Below, in pieces: positions 48,140 to 48,691 of a stretch of DNA of 64,000 nucleotides. Every line of letters begins with the position of its first letter. The stretch's first letter is position 1. A program made the translations under genes and the position numbers. The notes under the pieces were generated by a model that worked only from the letters and a program-made list of their open reading frames with translations, was not told the origin of the DNA and made no database searches. The DNA is from Escherichia phage P1: sequence record AF234173.1, one strand, 5' to 3'.

Positions 48140-48156
48140 AATGCTCTAATAAATTT
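48140..48156 (+). promoter_or_regulatory. C1 operator-like site AATGCTCTAATAAATTT (Op51) at the immI promoter
   Basis: 16 of 17 match to the C1 operator consensus. Confidence 0.55.
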
Positions 48157-48344
48157 GTATTTTTAAGTCGCGAATGCTATCTTTTCGCATCATATTGACC
48201 TTTTAATCGTTCAGGCTTATAGTTCCACCGTCGTAGCAAATTCTGCGACCGGTTTTGACAGCCTGAATGTTAGTGCGGACAACCGCAGATTTCCGATATT
48301 GCGGTATTTTTGTGTCCGTAAACCGCGTTACGCCCGAATTATGG

Positions 48345-48425
48345 TGGGGCGTGATGGGGAGGCTTCGGCCTGCTGGTTTCACTAACGCCAGTCTGTCAAC
48401 CCTGTCACGTCCTGCCACCTGTTTG
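48345..48425 (+). ncRNA. c4: c4 antisense repressor RNA (approximate limits)
   Basis: Contains b' (CACTAAC, 48381-48387) and a' (CTGTCAA, 48393-48399) complementary to TTGACAG...GTTAGTG upstream (48255-48275) and at the icd ribosome-binding region (48424-48459). Confidence 0.4.
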
Positions 48426-48469
48426 ACAGCGGGTAGCAGGTTGTTAAACCTGTTAGTGAGGCCGTAACT

Positions 48470-48691
48470 ATGGTTAATGCCAATCCTTGCACACGCCCAG
48501 AATTCATCTGGCGTTTCTATTCCTGTAAAAAACACCACTATCACTTCGTTATCGCAGCAACTGAAGACGAAGCACGCTCTCAATTGCCTGATGGCCCCTG
48601 CATTTTTACTGCCCGTTTTTCTACTAACTCGCGCAATTCACTTAGTTACTGGAACCTCCCCTTCTCTGCCGACGTTCAGGGGGGTTTATGA
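48470..48691 (+). CDS. icd: Icd, small protein translationally coupled to ant
   Basis: 73-aa ORF from ATG 48470 with GTGAGG upstream; stop TGA overlaps the ant ATG (ATGA). Confidence 0.6.
   Translation: MVNANPCTRPEFIWRFYSCKKHHYHFVIAATEDEARSQLPDGPCIFTARFSTNSRNSLSYWNLPFSADVQGGL

Follow-up and report, generated by a model that had tools for sequence, protein, structure and literature searches.

C4 antisense RNA and its complementary target sites upstream of icd and ant in the immI operon of Escherichia phage P1

The question and the identity of the region

How might a pair of 7-nt words, each found on both sides of its own complement in the leader of a small gene, serve to keep a phage antirepressor switched off? 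The question is raised by positions 48140-48691 of a 64-kb stretch of DNA (here called the window), for which an antisense mode of control had been proposed in a first-pass annotation, and our analysis bears on the identity of the region, its motifs, the fold and family membership of the RNA, the co-variation of loops and targets, and the overlap of the downstream open reading frames (ORFs). Positions 48100-48750 of the window match the complete Escherichia phage P1 genomes AF234172.1 and NC_005856.1 at the same coordinates with 100% identity, and the older immI fragment X17512 is likewise 100% identical. The stretch 48140-48691 is the immI region of P1. The c4-icd-ant circuit of P1 is already known, having been published from 1990 on and established by genetics and biochemistry, and is fully annotated in the reference genome. 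Our overall reading, to which we give a probability of roughly 0.97, is that this is the P1 immI operon, in which the C4 antisense RNA blocks the ribosome-binding site (RBS) of icd and keeps Ant off; none of our results contradicts it.

All of the features considered below lie on the + strand. The upstream end of the region is formed by the C1 repressor operator Oc4 (formerly Op51; 48140-48156; sequence AATGCTCTAATAAATTT), which is annotated in AF234172 and is overlapped by the annotated promoter P2c4 (formerly P51a; 48155-48183); the same record states that the expression of c4 is controlled by this C1 operator. A second annotated promoter, P1c4 (formerly P51b; 48195-48223; TTGACC-17-TATAGT), was also recovered by a promoter consensus scan that is independent of the annotation, with a match to 10 of the 12 consensus positions.

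Two interleaved sets of complementary elements

The complementary elements fall into two sets, a and b, which are interleaved along the + strand in the order a1-b1-b'-a'-a2-b2. The word TTGACAG is present at 48255-48261 (a1, the upstream site complementary to a', annotated as "putative") and at 48423-48429 (a2, the annotated target in the icd leader, 4 nt past the 3' end of C4). Similarly, GTTAGTG is present at 48269-48275 within b1 (GTTAGTG[C], 48269-48276, the upstream site complementary to b', again annotated as "putative") and at 48452-48458 within b2 (GTTAGTGA, 48452-48459, the annotated target that overlaps the icd Shine-Dalgarno sequence). Between these copies lie CACTAAC (48380-48386), which is contained in the full b' element TCACTAAC at 48379-48386, and CTGTCAA (a', 48393-48399). 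The first-pass annotation had named all of these motifs, and all are present, but it placed two of them 1 nt off, with a2 starting at 48424 instead of 48423 and CACTAAC at 48381 instead of 48380. It was also right that TTGACAG and GTTAGTG occur twice each, but the real direct repeats are longer, namely, TTTGACAGC (9 nt) and TGTTAGTG[C/A]GG (11 nt).

Taken singly, the two 7-mers are found in the 64-kb window at chance frequency (9 versus 8.7 expected and 6 versus 5.2 expected). Against an expectation of 0.00 from 100 shuffles, the composite TTGACAG-N(5-25)-GTTAGTG has three occurrences, two of them on the + strand and the third as its reverse complement; they all fall in 48255-48458, and there is no copy elsewhere in the 64 kb. 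The b' and b2 elements form a perfect 8-bp duplex (TCACTAAC/GTTAGTGA), which, by inspection, is extendable via G-U pairs across the GAGG at 48458-48461. This GAGG, into which b2 runs directly, is the Shine-Dalgarno sequence of icd and stands 8 nt ahead of the icd ATG at 48470, bearing out the earlier proposal that the downstream set of elements covers the icd RBS; in the AF234172 record, a2 and b2 carry the note "repression of icd ant translation." The broader claim of an antisense layout, with C4 flanked by two sets of complementary targets, agrees with the P1 annotation and Rfam, as well as with the predicted fold and the comparative test that are described below.

Family, fold, and ends of the C4 RNA

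Rfam searches of the entire 64-kb window recovered only two families above threshold, both on the + strand: the C4 antisense RNA (RF01695; 68.8 bits versus a gathering score of 45), whose match at 48337-48422 is full length (model positions 1 to 87), and the c4-a1b1 structured leader (RF03163; 51.0 bits versus a gathering score of 46.7) at 48217-48269. The processed form of C4, which is annotated as a misc_RNA of 77 nt at 48343-48419, has a predicted minimum free energy (MFE) of -42 kcal/mol (z = -4.55 versus shuffles), and its MFE and centroid structures are identical. In this fold, a terminal helix of 17 bp (48343-48359/48400-48416), which is followed by an unpaired ACC, closes a three-way junction with two hairpins, the arrangement by which RF01695 is structurally defined. 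One of the hairpins is capped by UUCG and the other presents b' (UCACUAAC, 48379-48386) in its loop, while the unpaired 3' strand of the junction consists of 7 nt that are exactly a' (CUGUCAA). An alignment of seven divergent homologs (P1, P7, ECO95, Stx2a_1447, Yersinia vB_YpM_41, an Acinetobacter phage contig, and the viral contig L068) contains compensatory double changes in 7 of the 27 predicted C4 pairs. We rejected an RNA from the opposite strand, given that its fold is unremarkable (z = -1.16) and that the Rfam matches are confined to the + strand.

In PMC5320573, on the authority of Hartmann et al. (1995) and Citron & Schuster (1990), C4 is reported to be cut from a larger transcript to a length of about 77 nt, its 5' end being generated by RNase P; the same source describes the a' and b' loops as binding the target, with b' occluding the RBS. 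The tRNA-like element of C4 is its 17-bp terminal helix together with the single-stranded 3' ACC, which, in the predicted fold, is compatible with an acceptor-stem mimic and fits the reported cleavage by RNase P. A tRNA gene or a complete cloverleaf at c4 was rejected as a candidate: ARAGORN found no tRNA in 48100-48700, and the resemblance to tRNA is limited to the terminal helix plus ACC.

These results also bear on three points of the first-pass annotation. Its antisense proposal is supported by a stable C4 fold in which b' is displayed in a loop and a' has no pairing partner. The tRNA-like stem that it drew between CTGTCAA and TTGACAG does not survive, since a' is unpaired in the folds of both C4 and a 251-nt precursor and its pairing with TTGACAG would cross the terminal helix. 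Its statement that the limits of the processed RNA cannot be set is superseded by the annotation of 48343-48419 in the record and by the processed form of about 77 nt reported in PMC5320573.

The same structures help to decide whether the elements might act mainly in cis, with a' and b' pairing with a2/b2 or a1/b1 of the same unprocessed molecule to form a structural switch. Regulator and targets are indeed carried by one transcript, a' is only 23 nt from a2, and alternative cis structures control translation in the homologous isrK locus of Gifsy-1 (PMC4825925). We nevertheless consider a switch of this kind very improbable for P1. In the MFE structure of the 251-nt precursor, the C4 fold persists and a' is not paired to a2; as a' lies inside and a2 outside the 17-bp helix, with only 6 nt between the end of the helix and a2, such pairing would presumably require C4 to unfold. 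Processing to about 77 nt, as reported in PMC5320573, likewise speaks against it, and c4 provided on a separate replicon has been reported to repress icd/ant of a target from which c4 was deleted. Moreover, superinfection immunity and the heteroimmunity of P1 and P7 have been attributed to c4 (PMC12197685, PMC6906374), and immunity that is borne by c4 would imply action in trans on the transcript of another genome. We therefore favor C4 as a processed RNA that acts in trans.

Coordinated variation of loops and targets among P1-like loci

In an alignment of seven named phages (P1, P7, D6, Ro157c2YLVW, SJ46, 673R5, and MH422554), the region corresponding to 48210-48475 shows good conservation, with most of the variation falling inside the six elements, where it is compensatory. 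For example, P1 combines the a type TTGACAG (a' CTGTCAA) with the b type GTTAGTG (b' CACTAAC), and P7 combines the a type TTAGCAG (a' CTGCTAA) with the b type GATTGTG (b' CACAATC). We extended the comparison to 120 regions (54 distinct sequences), comprising IMG/VR loci with an exact 25-nt C4 seed and the named phages, which, being selected by a seed, are close relatives and not independent lineages. In 118 of these 120 loci, both a sites are exact complements of a' and both b sites are exact complements of b'; for the upstream sites taken separately, a1 matches the complement of a' in all 120 loci and b1 that of b' in 118. The perfectly matching loci span 13 combinations of a and b specificities. 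There are two main a types, with a third in one further locus, and six b types among the perfectly matching loci. The minority-base fraction averages 0.26 over the 42 columns of the elements versus 0.046 over the 205 other columns.

Because the a and b sets are interleaved, neither could be exchanged alone without several crossovers, an argument for selection on pairing and against simple linkage. The mosaic of specificities thus points to pairing that has been selected at all three places, the "putative" a1/b1 sites included. As a component of our overall explanation of immI, and with the same near certainty, we take the loop and target sequences to set the specificity of immunity, as in P1 versus P7, and the 13 loop/target combinations in 120 P1-like elements illustrate how heteroimmunity classes diversify.

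The pattern of variation also bears on the original reading of c4 as a small repressor protein, with the complementary motifs being incidental. An ATG-initiated ORF of 66 aa (48267-48467) does overlap the C4 RNA, and a coding interpretation persists in older or automated records, which retain "c4: CDS" (X15639) or "transcriptional regulator C4" (RCS47). However, the Rfam covariance model matches well over its threshold, a stable fold is formed on the + strand only, and the pairs of the helices co-vary in distant homologs. The variation among the 120 loci takes the form of short blocks that change jointly at three places with base-pairing kept, which is a constraint of the RNA type and not of codons, and the literature calls the c4 repressors antisense RNAs. 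Variation and literature together led us to rule out the 66-codon ORF as the c4 product, and we leave the protein reading only a vanishingly small probability. Chance as an explanation, with short words of an ordinary intergenic leader happening to be complementary, can be dismissed outright: although each 7-mer by itself does occur at the chance rate, the composite is present three times in 205 nt versus none expected, 118 of the 120 loci show perfect six-way co-variation, and other phage groups have the same layout with sequences that are unrelated (see below).

The icd-ant junction and the proposed course of repression

The gene that follows b2 is icd (48470-48691; 73 aa), which was recovered as an ORF and is annotated as a cell division inhibitor and leader ORF for ant. 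Icd matches the NCBIfam model NF033153 (phage_ICD_like; 52.6 bits), and no Pfam model matches it. The next ORF, ant1 (48688-49731), codes for the annotated antirepressor of 347 aa, which contains an ANT/KilAC domain (Pfam PF03374; 106.5 bits), and ant2 (48937-49731) is annotated as lying in frame within ant1. The icd stop codon, TGA, overlaps the ATG of ant1 as ATGA at 48688-48691. Both the 73 codons of icd and the overlap of its TGA with the ant ATG had been noted in the first-pass annotation, and the ORF list and the sequence of the junction confirm them; the coupling of ant to icd that it proposed fits this overlapping stop and start and matches the P1 annotation, where icd is described as "apparently required for expression of ant" (AF234172). 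In the 108 P1-like loci whose sequence extends far enough, the icd stop completes the 4-mer ATGA in 84 cases, where the ATG of the next gene overlaps the stop, and CTGA in 19; an example of the latter (D6 type) reads TGATG, with the stop and the next ATG sharing an A. The conserved form of this stop-start junction is consistent with translational coupling.

The following course of events would account for these features. Transcription would proceed from the tandem promoters P2c4 and P1c4, under the control of the C1 operator Oc4, and yield a single RNA in which the a1/b1 leader is followed by the c4 precursor, the a2/b2 leader of icd, icd, and ant1/ant2. From that transcript, the 77-nt C4 (48343-48419) would be excised, its 5' end being made by host RNase P, and it would then act in trans on transcripts of this same kind through the pairing of a' with a2 and of b' with b2. 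The b'/b2 duplex would cover the GAGG of the icd Shine-Dalgarno sequence, so that icd would not be translated, and since the start of ant1 overlaps the stop of icd, Ant synthesis would depend on the translation of icd through the ATGA overlap. With Ant off, the C1 repressor would stay active and lysogeny would be maintained. For four of the steps, namely, RNase P processing, action in trans, translational coupling, and Rho-dependent termination, we draw on the literature. Untranslated icd RNA is reportedly subject to premature Rho-dependent termination. Full repression of ant is described as needing C4 besides C1 (PMC8198154). The c4 repressors are presented as antisense RNAs (PMC8198154, PMC12197685, PMC5320573); C4 represses ant, and its differences between P1 and P7 underlie heteroimmunity (PMC8198154, PMC12197685, PMC6906374). 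C4 is also stated to bind around the RBS and block translation, which is given as the basis of this heteroimmunity (PMC12197685, PMC6906374).

Related systems and the a1/b1 leader

The closest known system is the immI region of P1 and P7 itself (Citron & Schuster 1990; RF01695, RF03163): it is the same system, with every element annotated at these coordinates, and there is no difference to report, the stretch being that of the reference P1 genome (mod749::IS5 c1.100). Beyond the P1 group, a sensitive search recovered the same module; in four elements, the lambdoid Stx2a_1447 and mEp460, an ECO95 contig, and Yersinia vB_YpM_41, a match to IsrK (53.8-70.9 bits; gathering score, 50) is found directly upstream of a match to C4 (80.7-83.6 bits). 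Stx2a_1447 shows the same six-element layout as P1 with loop sequences that are unrelated to those of P1. Its b' is CUUUGGUGA, with the target TCACCAAAG present both upstream and downstream, and the downstream copy runs into an AGAGG before the ATG of the antirepressor; its a' is UUUCCAC, with GTGGAAA present in the loop of the upstream hairpin and again just past C4. The ECO95 contig likewise has the six-element layout with unrelated loop sequences. For Yersinia vB_YpM_41, the comparison covered both b sites and the downstream a site (TTGGCGT), and all three are present; here, the start codon itself is overlapped by the downstream b site.

The same modular order as in P1 immI is also found in the isrK/orf45 (STnc1160)/anrP locus of Gifsy-1 in Salmonella (Hershko-Shalev et al. 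2016, PMC4825925). There, a short, terminated IsrK RNA activates the translation of orf45-anrP in trans; STnc1160, an RNA of about 80 nt that is complementary to IsrK, is processed from the read-through transcripts; and the stop of orf45 overlaps the start of anrP as AUGA (PMC4825925). The promoter-proximal IsrK leader of Gifsy-1 corresponds to the a1/b1 leader of P1, and position and size suggest that STnc1160 is the equivalent of C4, the comparison with the Salmonella locus being made by its published description. The two systems differ in the regulator that was studied, which is the activating IsrK in Gifsy-1 and the repressing C4 in P1. They also differ in that the P1 leader reaches only 35 bits with the isrK model, below its threshold of 50, and in that the P1 terminator looks weaker. 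The Gifsy-1 study cites neither Citron nor Schuster and likens its locus to the CI RNA of phage P4 (PMC4825925).

The predicted fold of the P1 leader consists of a hairpin at 48230-48249, followed by a small hairpin with a1 in its loop, and then by a terminator-like hairpin (48275-48319) that appears, from the folds and a subthreshold isrK alignment, to be the counterpart of the IsrK terminator. The inner stem of the latter (48282-48287/48300-48305) is followed by an A and a U5 tract at 48307-48311, and an outer stem (48275-48281/48313-48319) encloses it. A simple scan that allowed loops of 3 to 8 nt called no intrinsic terminator at this hairpin, which has a loop of 12 nt. With the isrK model (RF01394), the P1 leader scores 35.1 bits over 48230-48311, below the gathering score of 50. 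It is nevertheless likely that the P1 leader is homologous to the IsrK sRNA, because matches to IsrK of 53.8-70.9 bits stand directly upstream of C4 in the four elements named above.

The leader (48217-48319) may also be more than an extra target site and be the P1 counterpart of IsrK in function too, a short RNA that titrates C4 as an anti-antisense, which we offer as a tentative and, on balance, rather doubtful proposal. It would entail that some of the P1c4 and P2c4 transcripts end, or are processed, close to the hairpin at 48282-48311 with its U5 tract, and that the resulting short leader RNA displays a1 in a loop and b1 as a single strand, binding and titrating C4. The balance between terminated and read-through transcripts would then set the threshold for derepression of icd and ant. 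The literature that we searched yielded no report of a short a1/b1 RNA in P1. The strict conservation of a1/b1 by itself suggests only that these sites have been selected to bind C4. We observe separately that the retention of a1/b1-C4 complementarity in 118 of 120 loci and the common occurrence of IsrK-C4 tandems support part of the titration reading. The link to IsrK suggests a testable role for the "putative" a1/b1 sites, and the P1 and Gifsy-1 literature that we examined does not connect the two systems.

Two further phage RNAs may be compared with C4. The CI RNA of satellite phage P4 (targets seqA/seqC) is like C4 in being processed from an untranslated leader and in having targets both upstream and downstream of it on the same transcript; as judged by the description in PMC4825925, the P4 RNA leads to transcription termination, whereas C4 primarily occludes an RBS. 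The sar RNA of P22 is not homologous to C4, and, unlike sar, C4 is encoded on the same strand as its target and upstream of it and pairs via two short loops. P22 sar is instead transcribed from the opposite strand, as a genuine cis-antisense RNA. The likeness between them is that, in both cases, a small RNA pairs with the ant mRNA and represses the translation of the antirepressor (PMC12197685).

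Specificity combinations among P1-like immI regions

Among the 120 P1-like loci (L002-L127) in which the six elements a1-b1-b'-a'-a2-b2, aligned to positions 48255 to 48458 of the window, were scored for pairing, a types and b types combine in at least 13 different ways. The a elements fall into two main types and a third found in one locus, and six b types occur among the perfectly matching loci. The potential specificity classes of immI far exceed the classical P1/P7 pair. The sole clear case of a drifted upstream site in this set is the b1 element of phage vB_EcoM-673R5 (L006), in which a GG insertion gives ACGGGAATG versus ACGAATG in b2 (columns 61 to 71 of alignment A1, which includes this phage); the insertion disrupts the b1/b' pairing, while b2/b' is still perfect. 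In the same phage, a single reading frame (L006:674-1252) joins icd and ant1 (…ADVQGVMKTPLV…), whereas P1 has an overlapping ATGA at this junction; either the two genes are genuinely fused, or the junction was misassembled or misread in sequencing.

IsrK-like leader upstream of C4

The P1 leader carrying a1 and b1 (48217-48319) appears to be homologous to the IsrK sRNA. The Rfam IsrK model scores 35 bits on it, below the gathering score, and in lambdoid and Yersinia phages IsrK matches of 54 to 71 bits are directly followed on their 3' side by C4 matches of 81 to 84 bits. Such IsrK-C4 tandems are found in Stx2a_1447 (L129:1437-1625), mEp460 (L130:1437-1625), the ECO95 contig (L128:514-709), and Yersinia phage vB_YpM_41 (L132:538-723). 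The order reported for Gifsy-1 in the IsrK paper, namely, isrK, a processed RNA of ~80 nt, a small ORF, and an antirepressor, parallels the P1 layout; that paper makes no reference to the work on P1 c4 by Citron and Schuster. In the minimum free energy fold of the P1 leader, a1 (UUGACA) is paired to b1 (UGUUAG), G-U pairs included (48255-48275), so that each upstream site may be partly hidden by the other.

Reading frames and neighboring RNA elements

In Stx2a_1447 (L129:1077-2228) and mEp460 (L130:1077-2228), an annotated 383-aa "antirepressor"/"Rha" coding sequence extends across both the IsrK and the C4 RNA genes. As the b2 site in Stx2a_1447 continues into a Shine-Dalgarno sequence shortly 5' of an internal ATG at L129:1683, this ATG is suggested to be the true start and the annotated one to be over-extended. 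In P1, a 66-codon ORF (48267-48467, plus strand) overlaps b1, C4, a2, and b2; some database records (X15639, RCS47) keep it as a c4 coding sequence or "transcriptional regulator C4."

Near immI, another antisense element is listed in the P1 record (49915-49951, minus strand), made up of the PaskilA promoter and an RNA complementary to the 5' end of kilA; the Rfam search gave no family match there. In the ECO95 contig, a subthreshold match to the OrzO-P antitoxin RNA family (L128:369-447; 42.3 bits versus a gathering score of 60) lies a short way upstream of the IsrK/C4 module.
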